DNA of 64,000 nucleotides from Candidatus Cloacimonadales bacterium. Its GTDB lineage: Bacteria; Cloacimonadota; Cloacimonadia; Cloacimonadales; JAFGVF01. A model generated the notes under the pieces. It saw nothing but the letters and a program-made list of their open reading frames with translations, made no database searches and was not told where the DNA came from. A program made the position numbers and the translations under genes. The stretch spans positions 2,880,001-2,944,000 of the forward strand of contig OY782781.1 of assembly GCA_963678315.1 (NCBI GenBank). The letters are read 5' to 3'. Within the stretch, counting starts at the first letter, position 1. Each line of letters begins with the position of its first letter. Below are positions 29,244 to 43,480 of this stretch, piece by piece.

Positions 29244-30134
29244 GTGAAAAAACTAATAATTGAAGGTTTGTCAAAAACGTATTCAAATGGGACACATGCA
29301 TTAAAAGATATCAATTTAGAGATATCAGAAGGTATGTTCGGACTACTAGGACCTAATGGTGCTGGTAAATCAACTTTAATGAGAACAATTTCGACACTAC
29401 AAGATGCTGACACAGGTATGATTGAATTTAATGGCATTAAGATTAGTCAGAACAAAGATGATATAAGAAAAAAACTTGGTTTCTTACCACAGAACTTTGG
29501 TTTTTATCCTAATCTATCAGCTCTTGACACATTAAACTACTTCGCAGTCTTAAAGGGTATATCAAAGGCATCTGAGAGAAAGAACTTAGTAGCTGAATGG
29601 CTGGATAAAGTCAATCTTTATGAATATCGTAAGAAAAAGGTAGGTGGATTCTCGGGCGGTATGAAGCAACGCTTAGGAATTGCTCAAGCTTTGATAGCCA
29701 ACCCTGAATTAGTAATTGTAGATGAACCTACTGCAGGACTTGATCCTAAAGAGAGAAATCACTTCCACAATATACTATCAGAAATAGGTGAAGACAAAAT
29801 AGTTATTCTATCAACCCATATCGTAGATGATGTTAGTGATCTTTGTACTGACATGGCTATTATCAATAGAGGGCAAGTAATACTACAAGGTTCACCAGAG
29901 AATGAAATTAAGAATCTACAAGGTAAGATTTGGCAAAGAGTTATTAATAAAGATGAGATTGGACGCTTCCATCAAGATTATAATGTTATATCAGCTAACC
30001 TTTTCATGGGCAAGCTCAAAGTTACTGTTAACTCAGAAGATGATTTAAGTAAAGATTTCCAGTTAAAGACTCCAGATTTAGAAGATGTTTACTTCACAAT
30101 GATTCCACAAGGTGAATTCAACGGAGGAAAGTAA
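29244..30134 (+). CDS. ABC transporter ATP-binding protein
   Basis: GPNGAGKST, FSGGMKQR, VDEPTAGLD, STH. Confidence 0.93.
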   Translation: MKKLIIEGLSKTYSNGTHALKDINLEISEGMFGLLGPNGAGKSTLMRTISTLQDADTGMIEFNGIKISQNKDDIRKKLGFLPQNFGFYPNLSALDTLNYFAVLKGISKASERKNLVAEWLDKVNLYEYRKKKVGGFSGGMKQRLGIAQALIANPELVIVDEPTAGLDPKERNHFHNILSEIGEDKIVILSTHIVDDVSDLCTDMAIINRGQVILQGSPENEIKNLQGKIWQRVINKDEIGRFHQDYNVISANLFMGKLKVTVNSEDDLSKDFQLKTPDLEDVYFTMIPQGEFNGGK

Positions 30135-33100
30135 TGTTTTTTAACTTATTAAAATACGAGTATAAGTATATGCTCAAGAAAAGTTCTACCTATGTGTACA
30201 CTTTTATCTTCATGGCTTTGGGATTCCTCATCATGAATATTTTAGCAGGTGCTTTCACAGGGGTTAGAATGTCTGTTCAATCTGGTAGTGAGGAACAAGT
30301 ATTTACAAATTCATCCATGATGATAATGATAATCTCTACAGCTCTTAATATGCTATTAATTCTTTTTGTTGGTGGCTATATGAGTGATATTCTTTTGAAG
30401 GATTATAACCACAATGCTTTCCAATTAGTTTATACTAAGCAAGTTAAGAAAATAGAATTATTTGCAAGCAGGTTATTTGTAGCAATAAGTGTCTTACTTA
30501 GTATGTTTTCTTTCATATCTATAGGTATGATTCTAGGTCGTTTTGCACCTTGGTTAGATGCTAAGCAATTCCAACCATTCAATGTGGCTTACTATCTGAG
30601 TCCATTCTTTAAGATATCAGCTCTCAATGTATTATATGCATCGTCGTTCTTCGCCCTAATAGCAATAATAACTAAGAAGAAGTTATATGTTAATCTATCA
30701 GCTGTCATACTATATATTGTATACTCTATAATTGTACCTTTTGCTTCTAGCTTAGAACTCAAGGAATTAGTAGCCATACTTGATCCATTCGCTATAACAA
30801 CCATGGAGATTATGACTGAGAATTGGTCTATTGCTCAAAGAAATACCGAGATAATGCCTTTAAACTCCTACCTTCTTTATAACAGATTATTGTGGCTAGC
30901 TATTGCAAGTGTAATTTATTTTATAGCCTACAAGAGCTACAAGTTTGCTTATCCATTGGATAGAAAAAAGAATAAAGAAAGTAAAGGAACTAATGAAAAA
31001 GCAAGATATAATAAAATTACCAATATATCTATTAAGTGGAATCTTGCTAATTACTTAACACAACTAAAACATTACTTCTTAATTGAATTCAAGATTTTAT
31101 ATAAGTCAGTTATGTTCAAGGTCATTCTTGTAATTTATACAATTTTCTTAGTAACAACACTTATGAATATGCAAATGATTTACGACACATCTGTCCATCC
31201 TGTAACCTATAAGATAGCTGAAGAGTTGATGAATGTACTAGAGATGTTCTCTCTTCTCTTCATAGCCATATTTGCGGGAGAATTACTCTGGAAATCAAGA
31301 GCTAACAAATGTGATATGTTTGAAGATGTTGCTCCTTTTAGTTCAGGAGTGAGAGTTATTTCTCATTTCTTAACTCTCCTAAGCTATATGGTTATTTATT
31401 GGCTTATTGGTTCAATTGCAGGTATGTCTTTCCAACTAGTTAATGGATTCACAGCAATAGAGCCTGGATTGTATCTGTCCTATGGAGGTCTTTGGCTTCT
31501 TCAGATTATGATAGTTATATGCGTGGCAATATTTATACATAATCTTGCACCAAACAGAATAGCAGGTATTTTCTTGTTTTTCGGTTTCTTTATTGCTAAA
31601 GGACAACTTTCGAATCTTGGGCTTGAACATCCACTTTGGCAGTTATTTAGCAATCAAAGGTTTATCTACTCCGATATGAATGCTTTTGGTTCATACCTAC
31701 CAAAACTCTTTACTTATAAGTTATATTGGGGGAGCTTTGCTTTTATTCTACTTCTTTTAGCATCAAAAATGTATAGAAGAGGAACAGCCCTAAGACTTAG
31801 AGATTACTTCAAGAATATTAAAGAGAACTGGAACACTCCACAAAGATTATTACTGATAGTTCTCTGCCTGGCATTTGTTTCTGGGGGGTCTATAATCTAT
31901 TATAACACAAATATATTAAATGATTACAGAACTATGGAAGAATCCCGCTTAGAAAATGTTAAATATGAAAACACTTATGCTTATCTTAAAAATCTAAAAC
32001 AAGCTAGAGTTACTGATGTAGACCTTAATGTGCAGTTTTACCCAGAAAAACTGGACGCTGGTGTATCTGGAACTTTAATCTTAAAAAATAAAACACAAGC
32101 ACCTATTGATTCATTGCTTTTTTATATTAATGAAAGCGATGATTTCACAAACTATACTATTGATAGAGAATTCCAAGAGTTGATTCATGATGATAATTAT
32201 GGTTTATATCTTGTAAAACTGTCTAATAGCTTAGAAGTTGGAGATTCCTTAACTTTTACTTTTGAAGATTATCATAAGCATAAGGGTTATGAAGTTGATA
32301 CTCATATATGTGAAAATGGCTCATTTGTTAATAGTAGTATGTTTATGCCTAGTTTCGGTTACTCAGACGCTTATGAATTAGGAAATAACGAACTTCGTAG
32401 GAAATATGGTCTTGCTCCCAAAGAAAGAATGGCTGAAACTGATGATCTTGAAGCAAGAGGAAACACTTATATTTCAAACGACTCTGATTGGGTTAACTTC
32501 AAGGCTACTGTTGGTACAACAGAAGATCAGATTGCTGTAGCTCCAGGATATCTTACAAAGACTTGGCTTGAAAATGGTAGAAAGCAGTTTTCATATGAAA
32601 TGGATATGCCGATACTCAAATTCTTTTCATTTGTTTCAGCTAGATACGAACTTGCAGAAGATAAATGGGTTTCAGATTCTGGTAAAGAAGTTAAACTAGA
32701 GATATATCATCATAAGGGTCACGATTACAACCATAATTCAATGTTCAAAGCTCTTAAAATGGGATTAAGTCACTATTCTAAGATCTATATGGAATACCCT
32801 CATAAACAAATGAGAATTCTTGAGTTTCCAAGATATGCAACTTTTGCTCAATCCTTCCCTAACACTGTACCTTACTCAGAAGGAATAGGCTTTATTGCTG
32901 ATGTTGAAGACCATGATGAACAAGATTATCCTTTCTTTGTAACAGCTCATGAATTAGCTCATCAATGGTGGGCTCATATAGTTATTGGAGCTAATGTACA
33001 AGGTGCTGTACTTATGAGTGAAGCTCTAGCCCAATACTCAGCATTATCTATTATGGAACAAGAATATGGTCAAGTTAAGATGGGAGACTTCCTTAAGCAT

Positions 33101-33748
33101 GAACTTTCTTCTTATATTAATGGGAGATCTTCTGAAGGCTCTAAAGAACAACCACTCTCCAAAGTAGAAAATCAGCAGTATATTCACTACAATAAAGGTT
33201 CTGTTGTGATGTTTGGTCTTAAAGGCTACATTGGTGAAGATAGAGTAAATGCAGCCCTCAAGGAAGTTGTGGATAAATATAAGTATCAAGAACCACCATA
33301 TATTAACTCTACAGAATTCTTGGAATGTATCTATAAACAAGTACCTGATTCTCTACAAAGCTTTGCTCATGAGCTATTCGAAGACATTGTCCTTTATAAC
33401 AACTCTATCAAAGATGTTCAAGTTACTGAAATTGGAGATAAGTTCAAAGTAGATATGACTTTTGAGTGCCACAAGGTCAGAGCCGATTCTATTGGTAATG
33501 AAACCGAGATAGCTATGGATGATTGGGTTGAAGTACTTGTCTTTAATGAGCAAGTAATTAACAGTAAGAAACAAAAGACTATTGCCAACCCGGATAATAG
33601 ATGGTTTAAGCTACAAAAGGGCGAAAACAGAGTATCAATTATAGTAGAAGATAAGCCTGTTGAAGCTGGAATTGACCCTTTCTTTAAACTACTCGATAAA
33701 ACTGTCTACAACAACAGAAAATTAATACACTCAATAAAAAAAGGATAA
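30134..33748 (+). CDS. ABC-2 permease fused to M1-family aminopeptidase
   Basis: Two TM bundles, then HELAHQWW-x-SEALAQY zinc motif and YNKG. Confidence 0.88.
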   Translation: MFFNLLKYEYKYMLKKSSTYVYTFIFMALGFLIMNILAGAFTGVRMSVQSGSEEQVFTNSSMMIMIISTALNMLLILFVGGYMSDILLKDYNHNAFQLVYTKQVKKIELFASRLFVAISVLLSMFSFISIGMILGRFAPWLDAKQFQPFNVAYYLSPFFKISALNVLYASSFFALIAIITKKKLYVNLSAVILYIVYSIIVPFASSLELKELVAILDPFAITTMEIMTENWSIAQRNTEIMPLNSYLLYNRLLWLAIASVIYFIAYKSYKFAYPLDRKKNKESKGTNEKARYNKITNISIKWNLANYLTQLKHYFLIEFKILYKSVMFKVILVIYTIFLVTTLMNMQMIYDTSVHPVTYKIAEELMNVLEMFSLLFIAIFAGELLWKSRANKCDMFEDVAPFSSGVRVISHFLTLLSYMVIYWLIGSIAGMSFQLVNGFTAIEPGLYLSYGGLWLLQIMIVICVAIFIHNLAPNRIAGIFLFFGFFIAKGQLSNLGLEHPLWQLFSNQRFIYSDMNAFGSYLPKLFTYKLYWGSFAFILLLLASKMYRRGTALRLRDYFKNIKENWNTPQRLLLIVLCLAFVSGGSIIYYNTNILNDYRTMEESRLENVKYENTYAYLKNLKQARVTDVDLNVQFYPEKLDAGVSGTLILKNKTQAPIDSLLFYINESDDFTNYTIDREFQELIHDDNYGLYLVKLSNSLEVGDSLTFTFEDYHKHKGYEVDTHICENGSFVNSSMFMPSFGYSDAYELGNNELRRKYGLAPKERMAETDDLEARGNTYISNDSDWVNFKATVGTTEDQIAVAPGYLTKTWLENGRKQFSYEMDMPILKFFSFVSARYELAEDKWVSDSGKEVKLEIYHHKGHDYNHNSMFKALKMGLSHYSKIYMEYPHKQMRILEFPRYATFAQSFPNTVPYSEGIGFIADVEDHDEQDYPFFVTAHELAHQWWAHIVIGANVQGAVLMSEALAQYSALSIMEQEYGQVKMGDFLKHELSSYINGRSSEGSKEQPLSKVENQQYIHYNKGSVVMFGLKGYIGEDRVNAALKEVVDKYKYQEPPYINSTEFLECIYKQVPDSLQSFAHELFEDIVLYNNSIKDVQVTEIGDKFKVDMTFECHKVRADSIGNETEIAMDDWVEVLVFNEQVINSKKQKTIANPDNRWFKLQKGENRVSIIVEDKPVEAGIDPFFKLLDKTVYNNRKLIHSIKKG

Positions 33749-33750
33749 AA

Positions 33751-34449
33751 ATGAAAAAGATTATAATCTCATTAATAATGCTAACTGCATTATTCTCATT
33801 ATATTGTAAAGAAATCAATGACCAATTGTGGCTGAAAGCAGTTCAACTTAAACGTAATGCAAAGAACTACTATGCTTCAAAAACTACTTTCCAGACTATC
33901 CAGAAAGATAAGAGAGGTAATGAAAAGGAAAAGAGTGTAGTAACTCTGAAATATATTGAACAAGATGGTAATATTATTACTAAATTTGTTGAAGGCTACC
34001 AAGATGGAAAAGCATTAACATCCGATGATAAAATGGTAGAAAGTTATATGCAGACACCTGCTAATATTGATGATGGTCAAGGTTTCTTCTTTACCAGAAC
34101 ATCTGACTCTTTCAAGTTAAAAAGGAAAGGTTCAGAAGTAATTAATGGTGACAACTATATAAAATTCTGGATTGAACTTGAAAAAGAAGAGGATGGTGAA
34201 GAAATAGATATAGAAGGATATATCTGGATTAATGAAGAAACTGGGGTTCCCTTGAAGAGTGTTCTTGATCTTGATCCTCATAAAATTATGGTCAAAAAAA
34301 TAACAATGACTAATCGCTATCAATTAGTTGACCAAAATAAATTATGCATTTACGATACAAGCTTGGATATTGTAGCAAGTATGGTCTTAAAGAAGTTCTA
34401 TATTACTCAAAGATCAAGCCACAGTGATTTTAAATTGCTTGGACAATAA
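33751..34449 (+). CDS. Exported hypothetical protein
   Basis: Signal peptide, beta-rich, 2 bp after the ABC-peptidase gene. Confidence 0.7.
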   Translation: MKKIIISLIMLTALFSLYCKEINDQLWLKAVQLKRNAKNYYASKTTFQTIQKDKRGNEKEKSVVTLKYIEQDGNIITKFVEGYQDGKALTSDDKMVESYMQTPANIDDGQGFFFTRTSDSFKLKRKGSEVINGDNYIKFWIELEKEEDGEEIDIEGYIWINEETGVPLKSVLDLDPHKIMVKKITMTNRYQLVDQNKLCIYDTSLDIVASMVLKKFYITQRSSHSDFKLLGQ

Positions 34450-34553
34450 TATATATATCATTCGCTGTAATTGTACATTGATTACAGCCAGTGCTATTAG
34501 ATGATATCAAAAGATCTCATCGTGTTTTCTCTTTTTTATTAATACAATAAAGC

Positions 34554-34588
34554 AAAAAAAAAGAGCCTTGGCAAAACCAAGGCTCTTC
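34554..34588 (-). terminator. Intrinsic terminator
   Basis: aagagccttgg-caaaa-ccaaggctctt preceded on + by an A-run (U-tract on minus). Confidence 0.8.
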
Positions 34589-34686
34589 TATAGGAACAAA
34601 AATCCTACAATAATATTATATTTTTATCATTTACCATACTTCTAAAAGTCCATTTACTAGGATTAAAGAAGCAGGTTCAGATGATA

Positions 34687-36186
34687 CTATTTCATTAAGA
34701 TCATTTTCTTAGTTCCACTATATTTTCCATTTGTCATTTTGTAGAAATATAATCCTGAAGAAACTTTATTATTGTTATTATCTCTACCATTCCAAACAAC
34801 TTTATGGTTTCCAAGTGTTTGAGGAGAATTAACTAAAGTATTAACCAATTGACCTTTAACATTATATATTTCAATTGATACATTTTCATTATAATTAACA
34901 TTATAAGAGATAGTTGTTTCAGGGTTAAATGGATTTGGATAGTTATCAATCAAGCCAATGTGAGAAGCTACATCTTCTAAATCTTCATTAGCAACAGGTT
35001 CTGATAATAGGTTAAAAGTAACTTCAACGTTAGACATTTGATGACCACCATCACCATAACTATCAGCAATATTAAGTATCCATTCACCAATAGGATCTTG
35101 ACCAACAAAATCATATAATGTGATATCTAGAGCTGTAGGGTTAGTATCAGAAGCGTTGAAGAGTGTTAAGACCTCTCCACTTGGTGATTGAAGTGTTAGT
35201 GAACCTTCAGATGGGTAGTCCACAGATGTCCATGTTCCTGTTAAATGAATAGAAACAATAGGATCTTGAACATAAATAAAGAATGAAGTCCAACCTAAAT
35301 CTGCAAAAGAATTACTAAATGGTGCAGTATTATTTGGGTAAGCTGCTTGAGCAGGACTATCATCAGCAGTATTAATTACTGCTTCAGTTTGATCTTCACT
35401 AGGAACAGCCATTACTGAGATAACATAGTCTAAGACTTCACCAGATGAAGAACCTTGGATTGAAACTGTGAATGAACCCATAGTAGCAGTAGTTTCAATA
35501 GTTAACTCTGTACCTGTAATTGTAGCAGAAATAGCTTCATCATCAGAAACTTCTGTTACAGTATATTCAACAGGGTCACCTAATGGATGATACATGAGAC
35601 CGTCTAGCTCGATATTTGTTGTTGAAGTAAGCTCAAGTACTTGAGCAGGAATTGATCCTGTATAATGAATATGTGAAAAAGTAGCAACTGCACCTGGCAC
35701 TGCTGCTTGGGCACTTGACCATTCGTTCTCACCATACATTAAGATATTACCAGCCCCGATAACTGCGAAGAATGGTACATAACCATTACCAAATGCAGAA
35801 TATTGAGCATCTAGTTCTGGTGCATAAGGAAGGTTAGTATGGCCTTGAGCACTCCAATCGTGTGCTGTTAATAAATAAACTTCATCTGCGTTTTGTTCTG
35901 GAAACCAAGTATTTAACTGCGGCGCCGCCGCAACACAACCTGATCAACCAGGTGAACCCCAGAAAAAGACAACAGCTTTTCCTGAGTTAGTTACTTGACT
36001 TAGTGATGTAGATTCACCATTTAAAGTCCATGTAAAATCATCAACAATCTCACCAACTCCATAAGCACGGGAGTTAATCACTACATCAGCATCCTTATAT
36101 TGCTTAGGACTGATAGGTGTAAATGATTGACCGATTAATGAAAATGTTGTTAAAATCACAAAAATGGTAATTACAAATTTTTTCAT
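34687..36186 (-). CDS. Probable secreted selenoprotein (499 aa): thioredoxin fold with UxxC, Ig-like and P-domain-like regions, FlgD/T9SS-like C-terminal domain
   Basis: ORFs 35944-36186 and 34687-35739 are in the same frame, separated only by TGA 35946-35944; readthrough gives VVFFWGSPG-U-SG-C-VAAAPQLN...YVPFFAVIG. Promoter TTGACA(36259)-17-TATATT and GGAG RBS upstream. Confidence 0.85.
35905..35943 (-). promoter_or_regulatory. SECIS-like hairpin
   Basis: UCAGGU...GUUGCGGC-GGC-GCCGCAGU...ACUUGG immediately 3' of UGA; GCG GCG GCG CCG codons are atypical for this AT-rich DNA. Confidence 0.75.
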
Positions 36187-36741
36187 GTAATCTCCTATTT
36201 AGTTATTCCTTAGATTTTCTAAGTTATCCTAATATAGAACTATTTGCATATAATGTCAATCTATTTTATCCTTCTTTTAACATTGATAAAATTGCTATCT
36301 AAACAATTAATTAACAATTATTTAAATAAATAGCATTAAAACAACTAGAGTTTTCCTAAAATAAAACAAAGAATAAAAAAGTTGGTGTTTAGCTTCTAAC
36401 TTTCACAAACAAAGTGGAAATGTTGCAGAAAAACAACAAAAACTTTATTAGTATTGAGACATACTAAATAAAACTTACATTCTAACATCTATAACTGTTT
36501 TTAGTGCCCAGTAATTTTGCAAATCACATATTCATGCTGAACAGCTTAGAATTAATAAATTAAAAAGCTGTTGAAGATTATTGTAGACCTAATTCAAATA
36601 TAGTGCCATATTATATCATAGCTAATCAACCTTATATCACATTTTTTTAGGATAACTCATAATTATACTTTACATCTTTGAGATCTCATTGTATACTAGT
36701 TATTAGATAAGACTGATTATAATAATATAAGGAGTTGAAAA

Positions 36742-39198
36742 GTGAAGAAAATAATTCTATGTATTCTATTTATAATTATTGGATTGCTGTATGCCCAAGG
36801 AACTATGCCTCAAGGACAAGGGACTGAAGAAAATCCTTTTTTAGTAACAAGTTTAGATAATCTTAGGTATATTTCTGAGCATGAAGATATGTGGCTAAAC
36901 AAGCACTATCTACAAACTAATGATATTGATGCATCTGATACTGAAAATTGGAATGATAGTACTGGTTTTGACGGATTTGGAGAACTTGAAGTATTTTATG
37001 ATGAGGAGGATGATGATGAAAGCTATCATGAATATCATTATTTTGATTCAACATATTCAGGAAATGGATTCACAATATTTAACTTATATTCACACAGATC
37101 AATGGCAAGTTTTATTTCATTGTTGGGAGAGAATGGAATTGTGGAAAATTTAAACTTTTCTTCTCCAGAGATTATTGGTAGCAACTATTCAGCCGTCATT
37201 GCTGCACATTGTAATGGTCTTGTAAGGAATTGTAATATAACTGATGCAAATGTTGTATGTATGAGAGTTGGATTTGTTACAGCCTTATTGAGTGGAGATG
37301 GAAAAATAATAAACTGTGATATTGAGGGAGAAATTGCTGGCTATAGCAATTATCCGGGTACTGGTATAATTGCAGGTTATGTTCACGATGGTCAGAGCAA
37401 CACAGGTCAAATGATAATAGATTGCAGTGCTAGAGTAATATTTGGAGATGACACAATTTCTAACCAACCATTTGTTAAAGGTCTCATTGGAAATGATAAG
37501 TATAAAACAGTAAAAAATTCCTATTATTGCATCGAGAACAATGATGAAACAAGTTCTAACTTTACTGGGTTTGGAGGCATAAGTGAAGAACTATTTCAAG
37601 AATGGCTAGATAATGGCAAAGAACTACAAATAAACAATTATCTGACTCATGATGGGGATGATTATATTATTGATAGCCCTAATGATTTCGAGTATGTCAG
37701 AGCTTTTTACGATACAACACTGACTTATAGTATCTCGAATGATTTAGATTTTTCACTATACCCTAATCTAAATATTCCATATACTCGATCTTCTTTCGAA
37801 GGTAATAATCACACCATTTGCAATATTACATTTGATTCAGATAACTTATATGTTGCACCAATAGGGATTTTTAGAGGAGAATATTTTCAGAATTTAAATG
37901 TTTCAGATGGTAATGTTATCGGGTATAAGTATGTATCACTCTTAATAGCAGATAATTATGGAAATGTTTCTAACTGTCATGTTACCGGAAATGTAACAGG
38001 TCAATATTTTGTAGGAGGTATGATTGGAAATTCTGTTAGGAGAATAAATACTTCAGTTTTGGATTGCTCTGCTAATGTTACCATAGTTGGAGAAAGCTGG
38101 GTTGGAGGATTATTAGGTTGTGGAGTTGCAACAAATTGTAACGCTTATTCTGTTATAGATGCTAGCAGTTTTGTTGGAGGTATGATAGGAGTTGGGTGCG
38201 CTATAAATTGTAACGTTGAAACAGAGCTAAGTGGTTCTTCTCGTATTGGGGGCTTATTGGGGGTTGGTTATGCTACTGCTTCATCATCAATAGGGACTAT
38301 TGAAGGTGTAGTAAATATCGGAGGGCTCATAGGATATGTCAACAATTATGAATCAGCAAGTACGAATATTTCAGAAGATATCGAAAGATTGGAAATCATG
38401 GAAAACAATTTTTCAAGCTGTGAAATATCAGGAGTCTCCGAAATTGGAGGATTATATGGTTATGTAAAAGGTATTTATGATATTATTATTAAAGATAGCT
38501 ATTCTATTGGTCAAATAAATATTTCATCAAGGTCATATTCTAGTAGTCAAATAAACTCAGGTGGATTTATAGGTGAAACTTTTCAAGATGATATTGAAAT
38601 AAGAGATTGTTACACTGCATCAGAAATAGTCTATCCTTTAAATGAAATTGAAGATATATCATCTATTTCAGCTTTTATCGGCAATTCAACAGAAGAAATT
38701 GATATTTATAATTGTTTCTGCAGCGAAGAAATTGCAGGAGTTCCTGCACACAACGGGGCTAATAATGTAACTATAGCTGAACTTCACAATATAAACACTT
38801 ATCTTGATGTAGGATGGGATTTTGCTAACACATGGACTATTGATAGTGAAGCAAATGGTGCTTATCCTTACTTAAGAATTCACCAAGCTACTCCAAACAT
38901 AGAAGAAGAAGTAGAACATATCCAAGTATCTAATATTCTAAAATCAGCTTATCCAAATCCTTTTAATCCAGAAACTACTATCGAATTTACAGTAAAAGAT
39001 GATGAGATGGCTTCCCTAAAAATATACAACATTAAAGGTCAGCTTGTGAAAAATTTTGATATATTTGAATCAGGTGAGCATAAAATTGTTTGGCAAGGTA
39101 CTAACAACAAAAATAAGAGAGTAGCTTCTGGTTTATATCTATACAAATTAGAATCTAAAAATTCATCTCAGATTAAAAAAGTACTAATGATTAAGTAA
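36742..39198 (+). CDS. Secreted GLUG-repeat protein with FlgD/T9SS-like C-terminal domain
   Basis: GQGTEENPF, YLQTNDIDAS, repeated VGGLLG/IGGLIG, GWDFANTW, AYPNPFNPETT. Confidence 0.85.
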   Translation: MKKIILCILFIIIGLLYAQGTMPQGQGTEENPFLVTSLDNLRYISEHEDMWLNKHYLQTNDIDASDTENWNDSTGFDGFGELEVFYDEEDDDESYHEYHYFDSTYSGNGFTIFNLYSHRSMASFISLLGENGIVENLNFSSPEIIGSNYSAVIAAHCNGLVRNCNITDANVVCMRVGFVTALLSGDGKIINCDIEGEIAGYSNYPGTGIIAGYVHDGQSNTGQMIIDCSARVIFGDDTISNQPFVKGLIGNDKYKTVKNSYYCIENNDETSSNFTGFGGISEELFQEWLDNGKELQINNYLTHDGDDYIIDSPNDFEYVRAFYDTTLTYSISNDLDFSLYPNLNIPYTRSSFEGNNHTICNITFDSDNLYVAPIGIFRGEYFQNLNVSDGNVIGYKYVSLLIADNYGNVSNCHVTGNVTGQYFVGGMIGNSVRRINTSVLDCSANVTIVGESWVGGLLGCGVATNCNAYSVIDASSFVGGMIGVGCAINCNVETELSGSSRIGGLLGVGYATASSSIGTIEGVVNIGGLIGYVNNYESASTNISEDIERLEIMENNFSSCEISGVSEIGGLYGYVKGIYDIIIKDSYSIGQINISSRSYSSSQINSGGFIGETFQDDIEIRDCYTASEIVYPLNEIEDISSISAFIGNSTEEIDIYNCFCSEEIAGVPAHNGANNVTIAELHNINTYLDVGWDFANTWTIDSEANGAYPYLRIHQATPNIEEEVEHIQVSNILKSAYPNPFNPETTIEFTVKDDEMASLKIYNIKGQLVKNFDIFESGEHKIVWQGTNNKNKRVASGLYLYKLESKNSSQIKKVLMIK

Positions 39199-40133: not shown

Positions 40134-42389
40134 CTATATAAGACTAGATTGCTTATCGATAATACTAAACCCAAGGCTTTTGTATGCTTTCTTACGTTTA
40201 TTATACATTTTACTTAGTCTTTCAATATTGCCATCAACATAATCATAAACTTCGATAGATGTTTTATTCTCGTAAGTTCTAACTATTCTGCCAATATATT
40301 GATTAAGTGTTCCTTTCCAAGAAATGGGAAGAGCTAGAAATAGAGTATCAAGAATTGGTAAATCAAATCCTTCTCCTATATATTTACCAGTAGCTATTAT
40401 TATAAATTTATCATTAGAGCTAAGTGATGCTAGTTTATTCTTAGTCGTTTCTTTAGCCTTTGTCTTCATGTTGCCTTTGAGAACAATTATCTTGTCACAT
40501 ATTGGCGATAACTTCTCTTCAAGTATTTTTAGATGTGATACTCGCTCTGTTAATAAAAGAGGCTTTCTTCCTTTATCTAAAGCTTGAGCTATATCATTAC
40601 ATATTTTATTATTTCTATTAAAATCTTCTGACAAAATAGATAATTGCTTAGCTAAAGTAATATTTCCATCTACAGCATTTGAACCTGTTTCTATTTTATA
40701 AGCTATCATAGAATCAAATGATAGTTTAGTTGTAGATCTATATTTGATTTGACCACACTGCATGAAGACTATTGGATGATGTCCATCTTTTCTATTAGGT
40801 GTTGCAGACATTCCCAATATGTATTTAGCTTTTGACTTCTTTAAAATATTTTCAAAAGTGAAGGCAGCTATATGGTGGCATTCATCTATAATTATCTGTC
40901 CATATTGATCAATATTTTGAGCTGAAACATTCTTAAGAGTCTGGATCATAGCTATGTCAATTTGTAGTGTTTGGTTTGATTTTGTAGCACCTAGAGTGCC
41001 AATTTCGCATCCCGCAGTAAATATCTTTAATTTTTCTTTCCATTGGTTAAGAAGCTCAGTTCTGTGAACTAATATCAGTGTATTAACCTTTCTTTCGCAT
41101 ATTATTTTTGTAGCTAATACAGTTTTTCCAAAACCTGTAGAAGCGCACAAAACCGACATTTCATGCTTTATAAGTTCATTAAATGCCTGAACTTGTTTAG
41201 GAAACAACTTCCCTTGGAAACTACAATCAATCTTCTTTCCTTTGTTTCTCTGGTCATGAATTACATACCTTAACTTATTAGATACTATCGTCTCAATAAC
41301 TTTTTCATATAGTCCTGTAGGTAAACAAAGCATTTGGGGAAGGTTATTACCACATTGAATAAATCTTGGTATTTTATGAGTGGAACGCCTGGAAGCTTGT
41401 GCTATGTAAAACTCAGGATTAGAAAACACTGCTAGTTGAAGTAATTTATGATATAGATGCTTCGGTAACCCATTCTTACTAATATAAATTTGGTTTGAAA
41501 GAATAATACTAATCTTCTGTCTTTGATTAGTATCACATACTGGAATTATTATCTCCTTATTTCTGAGAATATCATCAACATCATTCTTAGTTAATCTATT
41601 TACAAGAGATAAATAAGCCCATTGGTCTTTAAATGGTTTAAATTCAGTATCAACAAATACAGAACCATTAAAGGATCTAGCTCTTTTTTGCAATGGGAGT
41701 GCTATCAAGTTACCAAAACCACCCTCTGGCAAGTAATCTTGATTTGGAAACATTCTATCATAAGATTCAAGATCTAGTAAATTACCGGTCTTCAGAGTCT
41801 CCGATATGATATGAGCACCTAATTTTCTTGCCAGTAAAGCTGTAATATCTTCTGAAAAGAAAATCCATAAGTGTGCACCTTTACCAGAACGTGATATTTC
41901 TATAGATGAAGGAATATTTAGTAGCATACAAGTTGAATAAACTGCTAATACATCTTTCTTCCAGTCTTTTTTATCAAAGTCAATTGCTAAGAATCTACAG
42001 CAATCATTATCCATTATTGGATATATTCCTACAACAATAACTCCTGAAAGATGATTATATATCACTCTATCACTTATTGGCTTGAAGTCTCTGTATTGGC
42101 AATTAACACATTTGATTTTGGGAAGACCACATTTAGGTTTTACCCATTTGTTATTACAGACTGGAGAATATCCAGATACACCTTTATTTTCCCATCTTTG
42201 AGCAAAAAAGTCTTCTCTACCTTTAAACAAAGAACGAAACAGTTTAATTTTATCTTCAGTTGAACTTAAATTATTAATTACCTTAGACTTTCTTGCAAGA
42301 ATTTCTTGGTTTTCAGAAAGACCTAACAATTTTCTAAGATATTTGTTTTCTTCTTCAAGTTGTTTGATTCTTTGTTTTAAGGAGTCCAT
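40134..42389 (-). CDS. AEP-primase-like (TOTE-type) domain fused to SF2 DEAD/DEAH helicase
   Basis: LFKGRED, FLAIDFD, SRSGKGAHLW, GFGNLIALPLQ; TGFGKT, DECHH, SATP, QYIGRIVR. Confidence 0.85.
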   Translation of the reverse strand: MDSLKQRIKQLEEENKYLRKLLGLSENQEILARKSKVINNLSSTEDKIKLFRSLFKGREDFFAQRWENKGVSGYSPVCNNKWVKPKCGLPKIKCVNCQYRDFKPISDRVIYNHLSGVIVVGIYPIMDNDCCRFLAIDFDKKDWKKDVLAVYSTCMLLNIPSSIEISRSGKGAHLWIFFSEDITALLARKLGAHIISETLKTGNLLDLESYDRMFPNQDYLPEGGFGNLIALPLQKRARSFNGSVFVDTEFKPFKDQWAYLSLVNRLTKNDVDDILRNKEIIIPVCDTNQRQKISIILSNQIYISKNGLPKHLYHKLLQLAVFSNPEFYIAQASRRSTHKIPRFIQCGNNLPQMLCLPTGLYEKVIETIVSNKLRYVIHDQRNKGKKIDCSFQGKLFPKQVQAFNELIKHEMSVLCASTGFGKTVLATKIICERKVNTLILVHRTELLNQWKEKLKIFTAGCEIGTLGATKSNQTLQIDIAMIQTLKNVSAQNIDQYGQIIIDECHHIAAFTFENILKKSKAKYILGMSATPNRKDGHHPIVFMQCGQIKYRSTTKLSFDSMIAYKIETGSNAVDGNITLAKQLSILSEDFNRNNKICNDIAQALDKGRKPLLLTERVSHLKILEEKLSPICDKIIVLKGNMKTKAKETTKNKLASLSSNDKFIIIATGKYIGEGFDLPILDTLFLALPISWKGTLNQYIGRIVRTYENKTSIEVYDYVDGNIERLSKMYNKRKKAYKSLGFSIIDKQSSLI

Positions 42390-42408
42390 AATATCTTCAT
42401 GTTAATGG

Positions 42409-43410
42409 TTACTCTTTCTTAGTTTTACGACTACCTATCTTAGCTTGTTTCTCAATAGAATTAATTGTTTCTAGATATTCTTTTTCAACACTTTCAAGAG
42501 TTTTGGCTTTATATTTTTTGTATTCTTCTTTAGCTTTTGATTTAGCTTGATTTGAGGATATTGAGTCTGAATTATTTAACACTTTACGACCAGTGGAAGA
42601 GAGTATGCTATCTAATTCTCTAACGAAATCAGACATAGTCATCGCTCTTTCTTCTATAGCATTAAGTTCAGCTAAATCGAAATATGCTGATACTAAATTA
42701 TTCAATACTTTCAGTTCCTGTATAGATAAATAATTTTTTGCAATCATTGCTTCTGCTTGGGTTGGTTGTTCTCCTCTGAAATTTGTAAGACCTACAAAAG
42801 GTTTATTACTATCAACTCGAAGATAAATTACTTCACTTGCCGTATTCCCATGAGCTGCAAAGTGTAGTTTGTTCTGAACAATTTTAAAAAAAATCATGCT
42901 TTCATCGCTTTTAGGATTATAATCAATAGCGGTAGCATAGAGTTCTAAAACTTGTCTATACATAACTTTTTCACTGCTTCTTATGTCTCTAATTCTTTCA
43001 AGTAATTCCTTCCAGTAATTACCACCACCAAAATTTTTTAATCGCTGGTCATCGATAGTAAAACCTTTAACAATATATTCTTTAATCCTAGTGGTTGCCC
43101 ATTGTCTAAAACGGGTACCCTGAATAGATTTAACCCTGTAACCAACTGAAATAATAACATCTAGATTATAATAATTAGTAGGTTTAGTAGAAAAATCGGA
43201 ATTTCCGATTTTTCTCATTGTATCATTTCTATCAAGCTCTTCTTCTTTATATATATTAAGTATGTGTTCATTAATTGTCGAACGGCTTTTTTCAAACAAC
43301 TCAGACATTTGTTCTATGGTCAACCAAACAGTTTCTTCTTCTAATCTAACCGAAATATTTGATTTTCCATCATCACTTCTGTATATTATTATTTCATTAT
43401 TTTTACTCAT
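42409..43410 (-). CDS. rhuM: RhuM-family DNA-binding protein
   Basis: ETVWLT, YNLDVIISVGYRVKS, FRQWAT, IRDIRSSEK, VQNKLH; likely start MSKN at 43410. Confidence 0.85.
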   Translation of the reverse strand: MSKNNEIIIYRSDDGKSNISVRLEEETVWLTIEQMSELFEKSRSTINEHILNIYKEEELDRNDTMRKIGNSDFSTKPTNYYNLDVIISVGYRVKSIQGTRFRQWATTRIKEYIVKGFTIDDQRLKNFGGGNYWKELLERIRDIRSSEKVMYRQVLELYATAIDYNPKSDESMIFFKIVQNKLHFAAHGNTASEVIYLRVDSNKPFVGLTNFRGEQPTQAEAMIAKNYLSIQELKVLNNLVSAYFDLAELNAIEERAMTMSDFVRELDSILSSTGRKVLNNSDSISSNQAKSKAKEEYKKYKAKTLESVEKEYLETINSIEKQAKIGSRKTKKE

Positions 43411-43480
43411 TATAAATCCTTTTAACATAAGCCTACATGTAAATTATATTATTTATCAAGCATTACATATTAATGTTAAT

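Follow-up and report, generated by a model that had tools for sequence, protein, structure and literature searches.

A probable family of type IX-sorted thioredoxin-fold selenoproteins in Cloacimonadota, split in two by standard gene calling

Introduction

Does a TGA codon lying between two called open reading frames (ORFs) end a protein, or does it encode selenocysteine (Sec, U)? The locus that raises this question occupies positions 34687 to 36186, on the minus strand, of a 64,000-nucleotide stretch of DNA (hereafter the window; positions 2,880,001 to 2,944,000 of contig OY782781.1, assembly GCA_963678315.1) from a Candidatus Cloacimonadales bacterium. An original prediction, made from the letters of the DNA, had proposed here a secreted, multidomain selenoprotein with a UxxC redox motif that standard gene calling had cut in two. 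The analysis reported here makes it very probable that the locus is a single gene for an exported, 499-residue Sec oxidoreductase with a type IX secretion system (T9SS) sorting domain. That it is a true selenoprotein gene is, in our judgment, close to certain, and we favor, with moderate confidence, a role for its product as a thiol-disulfide oxidoreductase at the cell surface.

Results

One reading frame around a single TGA

With translation table 11, the locus is called as an 80-aa ORF (36186..35944) that ends at the TGA and a 350-aa ORF (35739..34687), the two lying in one frame. Once the TGA is read through, the frame contains 499 open codons, with a single TGA at codon 81 (35946-35944), and the 68 codons that separate the called ORFs (codons 82-149) contain no stop at all, which is the arrangement that had been claimed. 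The read-through translation also contains the two sequence elements on which the claim of a redox active site was built, as the TGA is embedded in AVVFFWGSPG-U-SG-C-VAAAPQL, and the cis-Pro-type strand follows further downstream in the protein as GNGYVPFFAVIG. The gene and its signals are listed here.

34687..36186, minus strand: predicted selenoprotein gene, whole; 499 codons and then a TAG stop; one in-frame TGA
35944..35946, minus strand: predicted Sec codon UGA, codon 81; 60 of the 62 family copies share TGA at this column
36231..36259, minus strand: candidate sigma-70-like promoter, TTGACA-17 nt-TATATT, with 11 of 12 consensus matches; a consensus match alone
36192..36196, minus strand: AGGAG resembling a Shine-Dalgarno motif, 5 nt ahead of the start ATG (36186); read from the sequence
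34559..34589, minus strand: 14-pair intrinsic-terminator-like hairpin with a T run behind it, about 100 nt 3' of the stop codon

The candidate promoter sits about 45 nt 5' of the start codon, and the terminator-like hairpin is the sole site of its kind within positions 34300-36800. Because these two sites bracket both ORFs, the latter look like one transcription unit.

The TGA itself is genuine sequence, and a sequencing error was rejected, as the codon is identical in assemblies from three runs (X1, X2, and X8) that belong to three separate studies. The X1 assembly is identical to the window across the whole stretch and is probably its source; the X2 assembly differs at 19 other places and the X8 assembly at others again. 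A further assembly, X5, has no coverage of the TGA site.

Conservation of the TGA among Cloacimonadota

We used the first 160 residues to query 232 Cloacimonadota genomes in six frames and obtained 62 copies of the family, spread over 53 genomes and counting that of the window. At E <= 1e-16 there were 61 matches, again including that of the window, and 59 of these had exactly one in-frame TGA, as did one weaker family match (E 8e-6). Eight more matches (E 2e-5 to 9e-4) were stop-free and covered the query partially, and were taken as other thioredoxin-like proteins. In total, exactly one in-frame TGA is found in 60 of the 62 copies, always at the first position of U-x-x-C. A motif pattern search caught 59 of these 60 frames, and the remaining one (L062, with UGGC followed by EGSAP) was read by eye. 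The motif takes the forms UGGC, UPGC, UPSC, USGC, UDGC, UGSC, UPAC, UGTC, and UTPC, with F/W-G before it, and residues F75, G77, U81, C84, A88, P89, W111, G135, P138, and G144 are invariant in the 59 sequences that were aligned. Mean identity of the window protein to its 58 relatives in this alignment is 48% over residues 42-80 and 46.5% over residues 82-149, and such near-equal values suggest that the regions on either side of the TGA are under about equal constraint.

The two stop-free copies are L073 (G174:C145), which has CPFS within a 2266-codon frame, and L069 (G133:C160), which has SPSS. Both have lost Sec; the former has also lost the resolving Cys, and the latter, where both redox residues are gone, is probably redox-dead.

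Cysteine homologues and split gene calls

We searched a profile of 59 N-terminal domains against 1.84 billion representative proteins, which yielded 2341 matches at E <= 1e-3 and 80 at E <= 1e-10, and read 20 of the best 150. In 18 of these 20 the Sec column holds Cys, as part of CxxC (P0123 has SPSS, and P0160 was left out). The closest Cys homologue among those read is P0122, an uninterrupted protein of 523 aa with the sequence FWGEDWCGGC, and P0126-P0151 carry WCGPC, WCVPC, TCGPC, GCEAC, and similar motifs. The search for Cys-containing homologues that the original prediction called for therefore succeeded, with the CGGC of P0122, the WCGPC-type motifs, and the CPFS of the genomic copy L073. 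A word-based homologue search with residues 40-175 retrieved the window's own truncated product alone and was uninformative.

The profile matches are of three kinds, namely uninterrupted proteins that span the entire profile, ~60-aa pieces terminating at the motif, and proteins that start at profile position 71. Judging from where they begin and end, the last two kinds are split gene calls. The product of the window is itself stored in the databases as the 350-aa piece (P0002), and P0003 (named by NCBI "T9SS type A sorting domain-containing protein"), P0006, P0013, and P0014 begin just behind the motif.

These entries, together with the table 11 output, are what speaks for the simplest alternative, in which the TGA is a real stop and the locus is either a broken gene or two genes, one for an 80-aa secreted peptide and one for a 350-aa protein that starts at ATG 35739. 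This alternative, however, has to contend with a single TGA in the same column of 60 of 62 copies across 53 genomes, and with conservation that is nearly equal on both sides of it and extends over the 68 codons that would be intergenic. The 350-aa product would moreover be left with a sorting domain and no signal peptide, a Shine-Dalgarno motif was not seen before ATG 35739, and it is not credible that chance would have broken the gene 60 times at the position of the catalytic Cys. We consider a real stop very improbable.

Selenocysteine machinery and the meaning of TGA

The genome that carries the window also carries the Sec machinery, whose presence the original prediction had made a check of its reading. 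The genes for selA (487 bits), selB (325 bits), tRNA-Sec (61 bits), and selD (357 bits) all score above the curated cut-offs. The first two lie with tRNA-Sec in one minus-strand cluster (C1:2287845-2291246), and selD, found at 0.726 Mb, is itself a selenoprotein gene with an in-frame TGA (SGUGAK). A "Cloacimonetes type" of tRNA-Sec with a 7+5 acceptor/T stem has been described (PMC5330540). With regard to the genetic code, 90 of the 1222 frames of at least 300 codons end in TGA, the median number of open codons behind these TGAs is three, and just one of the 90 stays open for at least 100 codons. Such short open stretches indicate that TGA is otherwise a normal stop in this genome, and a general reassignment of the codon was rejected on these grounds.

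A conserved hairpin behind the UGA

Bacterial Sec insertion sequence (SECIS) elements usually have an apical loop with a G about 16-37 nt after the UGA. The elements of the hairpin found at this locus are the following.

35903..35945, minus strand: SECIS hairpin, from the fold and comparison across relatives
35934-35916, minus strand: conserved core of the SECIS, with 5' arm 35933-35927, GGC loop 35926-35924, and 3' arm 35923-35917
35945-35938 with 35910-35903, minus strand: lower stem of the SECIS, specific to this gene; from the fold

The upper stem, UUGCGGC/GCCGCAG, has 7 bp and closes a GGC loop, with 17 nt from the UGA to the loop; below it, GAUCAGGU pairs with ACUUGGUU. Among 59 aligned copies, the core CGGC-GGC-GCCG is nearly invariant, and the loop reads GGC in 57. 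About 82-83% of the cells of the upper stem (alignment columns 22-29 with 33-40) are paired, and six of the eight stem pairs show double-sided changes: at the base of the stem, 21 sequences have A-U and 18 have U-A, one C-G pair becomes A-U in four, and the closing pair has two exceptions, changed to A-U and G-U. No shuffle out of 500 attained the covariation score of the real alignment, and scores were lower in all slid registers. As just 50% of its cells are paired across relatives, the lower stem falls outside the conserved element. The hairpin that had been predicted thus stands in its upper stem, its spacing (17 nt), and its G-containing loop, and loses its lower stem as a conserved feature.

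The strongest single argument for a SECIS is codon usage. The genome has 32.8% GC, and GCG and CCG account for 2.2% of its Ala codons and 3.5% of its Pro codons, respectively; the AAAP of the hairpin region is nonetheless encoded GCG-GCG-GCG-CCG, for which the chance is about 4e-7. Likewise, the 9-mer GGCGGCGCC occurs a single time in the 2,988,751-base genome, at the hairpin. A similar hairpin, with a 7-bp stem and a GGU loop, follows the UGA of selD. Proper distance, compensatory changes, and an extreme codon bias together support the SECIS for which a search had been suggested.

The same data bear on a second alternative, that the UGA is read through without Sec, either by a near-cognate Trp or Cys tRNA or because TGA is a general sense codon. 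We found nothing specific in its favor. Against it stand the ordinary behavior of TGA as a stop elsewhere in the genome (the median of three open codons given above), the occurrence of one TGA per gene at the position of the redox Cys, a SECIS-type hairpin kept by selection against the codon usage of the genome, and the full selABCD set. Readthrough of this kind is, in our view, no more credible than a real stop.

Protein architecture and fold

The 499-residue product can be divided as follows.

36127..36186, minus strand: predicted signal peptide, residues 1-20 approximately; MKK plus a hydrophobic stretch, from the sequence pattern
35671..36069, minus strand: TlpA/ResA-like thioredoxin-fold domain, residues 40-172 approximately; U81-S-G-C84 and cis-Pro-type P138
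35401..35655, minus strand: immunoglobulin (Ig)-like beta-sandwich, residues 178-262 approximately; AlphaFold model strands 182-261, predicted local distance difference test (pLDDT) 88-97
35002..35304, minus strand: P-domain-like jelly roll, residues 295-395 approximately, including GEWILNIADSYGDGG; PF01483, Foldseek furin
34690..34956, minus strand: T9SS type A C-terminal sorting domain, residues 411-499 approximately; PF18962, TIGR04183

All the regions that had been claimed are seen in the protein, the signal peptide and the P-domain-like region as probable assignments. The sorting domain is the only one of them to exceed its Pfam threshold (PF18962, 39.5 bits, cut-off 27), and it also passes TIGR04183 (39.3 bits, cut-off 23). 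A start of the form M-K/R-K followed by a hydrophobic stretch is found in all 59 aligned relatives. No Pfam family matched the Ig-like region at threshold. The P-domain-like region falls just below the P_proprotein cut-off (PF01483, 20.8 bits, cut-off 21, E 4.1e-4), and is supported by six of 51 aligned relatives that match this family at E <= 1e-3 (best E 2e-5) and by Foldseek matches to the furin chains 5jmo_B and 7o1u (E ~3e-5).

An AlphaFold2 model built from a 51-row alignment has a mean pLDDT of 85.8. In the model, a helix at residues 2-18 corresponds to the signal peptide and is followed by a disordered, low-confidence linker (residues 19-38); the thioredoxin domain (pLDDT 92-97) places U81 between strand 71-76 and helix 82-97, and P138 precedes strand 139-143. 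When the family profile was compared to the PDB, it matched chains annotated as thiol-disulfide isomerase or ResA, and the CxxC motifs of 3hcz (E 6.4e-7) and 4nmu (ResA, E 9e-6) fell on UxxC. Domain-sized Foldseek matches ranged in TMt from 0.61 to 0.68 and included 4nmu (0.68), 3hdc (0.66), 4hqz (Etrx2, 0.65), and 3kcm, with 14-20% identity to the ResA/TlpA/Etrx-type structures; AhpE and Tpx were also listed. The top ranks of a whole-protein Foldseek search, long multidomain beta-sandwich proteins with TM < 0.2, were meaningless and were discarded.

UxxC motifs can bind soft metals, and peroxidatic Cys residues of peroxiredoxins lie in a PxxxT/SxxC context. A third alternative accepts a true selenoprotein and sees in it an envelope peroxidase that detoxifies peroxides, or a protein that binds or carries metal, sulfur, or selenium, instead of a disulfide reductase. 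In its support one can cite the weak match to AhpC-TSA (E 4.6e-4 here, found also in 16 of 51 relatives, best E 1.2e-6), AhpE and Tpx among the Foldseek matches, and the general capacity of UxxC for soft metals. On the other hand, helix 1 begins at U-x-x-C and the cis-Pro-type proline is invariant, features of TlpA/ResA-type oxidoreductases and not of peroxiredoxins, and the best matches by both profile and structure are ResA/TlpA-type proteins. These observations make the third alternative improbable, to a lesser degree than the two before it, and favor the thiol-disulfide oxidoreductase.

The domains that follow the Sec domain vary among relatives. We surveyed 51 aligned relatives, including 13 database proteins that lack the N-terminal domain, and found PKD domains in 22 members, right-handed beta-helices in 18, CarboxypepD_reg in 10, P_proprotein in six, fn3 in four, and dockerin in two. 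Since the passengers differ in this manner, the Sec domain is best described as a shared N-terminal module. The "unusual architecture" of the original prediction is therefore real, and at the same time less exotic than it had seemed, as the module is shared among varied T9SS-cargo passengers in the phylum.

C84 is the only Cys of the window protein, and for this reason the formation of disulfides in cis, within its own passenger, was rejected as a function. In addition, residues 71-442 (34861-35976) contain no Lys and no Arg across 372 residues, and 48 Asp/Glu. Lys plus Arg content averages 9.9% in the long frames of the genome, has a median of 3.9% in 42 other frames with a sorting domain, and ranges from 0 to 3.7% in relatives of the family. 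The absence of these residues may shield the protein from secreted proteases specific for Lys/Arg, or follow from a charge rule for cargo. It also means that standard tryptic proteomics would never have seen the mature protein.

Export system, redox partners, and neighboring genes

Our search for the T9SS machinery covered PorU and SprA, and both are encoded in the genome (PorU, 573.6 bits, cut-off 420; SprA, 517 bits summed, cut-off 200), along with more than 40 further frames that have a sorting domain. A DsbD-like protein (DsbD_TM plus Thioredoxin_7), encoded at genome positions 495193-497292, could reduce the thioredoxin domain in the periplasm.

The neighboring genes give no functional hint. 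They are an ABC ATPase and a 1204-aa protein, a 232-aa protein without a family, and, on the other side, a divergent 818-aa T9SS cargo. The first two lie in this order on the plus strand (29244-33748), and the 1204-aa protein looks like a multi-pass membrane protein in its N-terminal portion and has an M1 peptidase domain (E 3e-13) in its C-terminal portion. On the minus strand (40134-43428), a TOTE conflict-system primase (AEP-TOTE, E 4e-93) is fused to a ResIII/DEAD helicase and adjoins a RhuM-family gene (E 3e-96). This TOTE/RhuM patch, 4 kb from the selenoprotein gene, looks like a defense or mobile region.

Other selenoprotein candidates in the genome

Outside the window, the same genome encodes a second secreted UxxC protein (L096:790-2661; C1:854290-856161). 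It is 623 aa long, carries a T9SS sorting domain, reads VFTETW-U-PYCP at its motif, and is weakly related to the NF045500 model "Omp28-related selenoprotein" (34.5 bits, cut-off 200). Its relatives are found in 195 of the 232 Cloacimonadota genomes, as a mixture of one-TGA and Cys forms. Among the best 150 of 393 matches, an Omp28-related copy lies on the same strand as, and within 8 kb of, a member of the family studied here in at least nine genomes (G138, G214, G162, G167, G183, G176, G177, G220, and G221). A third candidate (L097:623-2851; C1:490623-492851) is a 742-aa frame with a signal peptide and Ig-like and T9SS sorting domains, in which one in-frame TGA falls in FCES-U-GL, a CxxU motif. 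Further single-TGA frames with long open flanks, for example near 1480892 (119 codons before and 674 after the TGA), 579482 (231 and 489), 344060 (175 and 418), and 1079716 (343 and 114), may be other selenoprotein genes.

Discussion

A proposed mechanism

The findings described above are consistent with a scheme in which 36186..34687 is a single gene, apparently a transcription unit of its own. A ribosome that meets UGA 81 would not terminate, as the GC-rich hairpin with its GGC loop would recruit SelB and Sec-tRNA(Sec), and Sec would be inserted. The signal peptide would then direct the product to the Sec translocon, and in the periplasm the protein would fold into its four modules (thioredoxin, Ig-like, P-domain-like, and sorting domain), the last of which would pass it to the T9SS for release or attachment to the cell surface. 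In the thioredoxin-fold domain, the active part, U81-x-x-C84 would cycle between the selenolate/thiol and the selenenylsulfide, making the protein a thiol-disulfide oxidoreductase that works outside the cytoplasm. Its targets would be disulfides in external or envelope substrates, which it would exchange or, most likely, reduce. Recharging might be provided by DsbD in the periplasm, before export, or by sulfide and thiols of the anoxic habitat once the protein is outside the cell.

Points against the proposed reading and distribution of the gene

A number of observations weigh against this reading. The fold of the hairpin, taken alone, is ordinary (-20 kcal/mol, z = -1.0, equalled by 32 of 200 shuffles), so that the weight of the hairpin comes from the comparison with relatives. 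RNAalifold, applied to the 59-sequence alignment, predicted just the four invariant core pairs, and the longer stem was assessed by explicit pair counts. An Rfam scan of positions 35800-36050 at E <= 10 returned no SECIS family, with chance-level snoU18 and mir-551 matches; the Rfam models of bacterial SECIS appear not to cover this type of hairpin. Placement within a subfamily of the thioredoxin fold is tentative, because Redoxin (PF08534, 21.9 bits, cut-off 26.6) and AhpC-TSA (PF00578, 20.6 bits, cut-off 26) both remain below their gathering scores; the domain is of the same fold class as ResA/TlpA, and outside both of these Pfam families. The resemblance to AhpC-TSA also leaves some room for the peroxidase role that we judged improbable above. 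With regard to mechanism, we know of no reductant outside the outer membrane. Lastly, the 11 other genomes of family f1, to which the window belongs, gave no copy in the six-frame search, and the gene is therefore dispensable and may be a recent acquisition.

Copies are otherwise found in 37 of 62 genomes of family f12, 13 of 21 of f17, and the single genomes of f5 and f10, and the eight genomes of f3 gave weak partial matches alone. A quick tree placed the window copy on a long branch (0.95) within a 27-row clade (SH-aLRT 99) to which f12 contributes 24 rows. This placement is weak; acquisition from an f12-like lineage would fit the tree, and loss in f1 would be the alternative.

Comparison with known systems

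Predicted UxxC selenoproteins appear in Table 1 of a 2026 review (PMC13188914) under three types, TlpA-like (cd02966), Redoxin (PF08534), and Prx-like (PF00578), and TlpA-like UxxC selenoproteins are therefore an already known, predicted kind. As described in that source, these proteins share with the family studied here the TlpA/ResA/redoxin-type thioredoxin fold, Sec in place of the first Cys of CxxC, a SECIS directly downstream in the coding region, and the existence of Cys homologues. Compared by description, the present family differs from them in being the N-terminal module of long, multidomain, T9SS-sorted proteins, and within the searches made it was found in Cloacimonadota alone. None of the NCBIfam selenoprotein models matches the N-terminal 165 residues, the sole match at E <= 1 being StoA_CxxC (15.1 bits, cut-off 210). 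What is new is thus the family, which is lineage-specific, modular, fused to T9SS sorting domains, outside the NCBIfam selenoprotein models, and split by gene callers.

ResA/TlpA-type proteins are kept reduced by membrane proteins of the CcdA/DsbD type. Together with Etrx-type proteins (4nmu, 3hcz, 3c71/1st9 ResA, and 4hqz Etrx2), they provide the best profile and structure matches to our family and are likewise extracytoplasmic, but each consists of one domain, is anchored to the membrane or by lipid, and relies on Cys. Among T9SS cargo, the closest analogue in function would be HBP35 of Porphyromonas gingivalis, which combines a thioredoxin-like motif with a C-terminal sorting domain and is reported to have thioredoxin activity (PMC2907840, PMC3120885); the likeness is drawn from published descriptions, and HBP35 differs in having Cys and not Sec, in its link to hemin binding, and in belonging to another phylum. 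The Omp28-related selenoprotein (NF045500; "hypothetical protein GOS_C" in PMC13188914, Table 1) is also a UxxC protein of the outer-membrane or secreted type, but has another N-terminal domain (VFTETWUPYCP, with no TlpA-type match) and the wider spread given above.

A search of the open-access literature for selenoproteins in connection with type IX secretion found nothing relevant. The original Cloacimonas genome paper may mention selenoproteins. No report of selenoproteins in Cloacimonadota was found in the portion of the open-access literature that was searchable, where the tRNA-Sec paper (PMC5330540) was the only one to touch on the subject.

Going further, one could speculate that the T9SS of Cloacimonadota exports a small set of Sec redox proteins that forms an extracellular, selenium-based thiol-disulfide system, an idea that we hold to be doubtful and put forward tentatively. 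The set would consist of the family studied here, the Omp28-related UxxC proteins (often encoded side by side with it), and possibly the CxxU protein. It might, for example, open disulfide-bonded proteins for the secreted proteases of the organism and run on environmental sulfide or thiols, and the near-total lack of Lys and Arg might protect its members from those same proteases.

Significance

Our results correct a systematic annotation error, as the gene is split here and the database relatives that were examined are stored as TGA-bounded pieces, and they add a lineage-specific family to the prokaryotic selenoproteome. They also point to an export of selenoproteins as far as the outer membrane or past it, and raise the question of how an enzyme with a selenolate would stay reduced outside the cell. 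In anaerobic digesters, relatives of this organism are common, and the findings suggest that the demand of these bacteria for selenium may be tied to extracellular chemistry.

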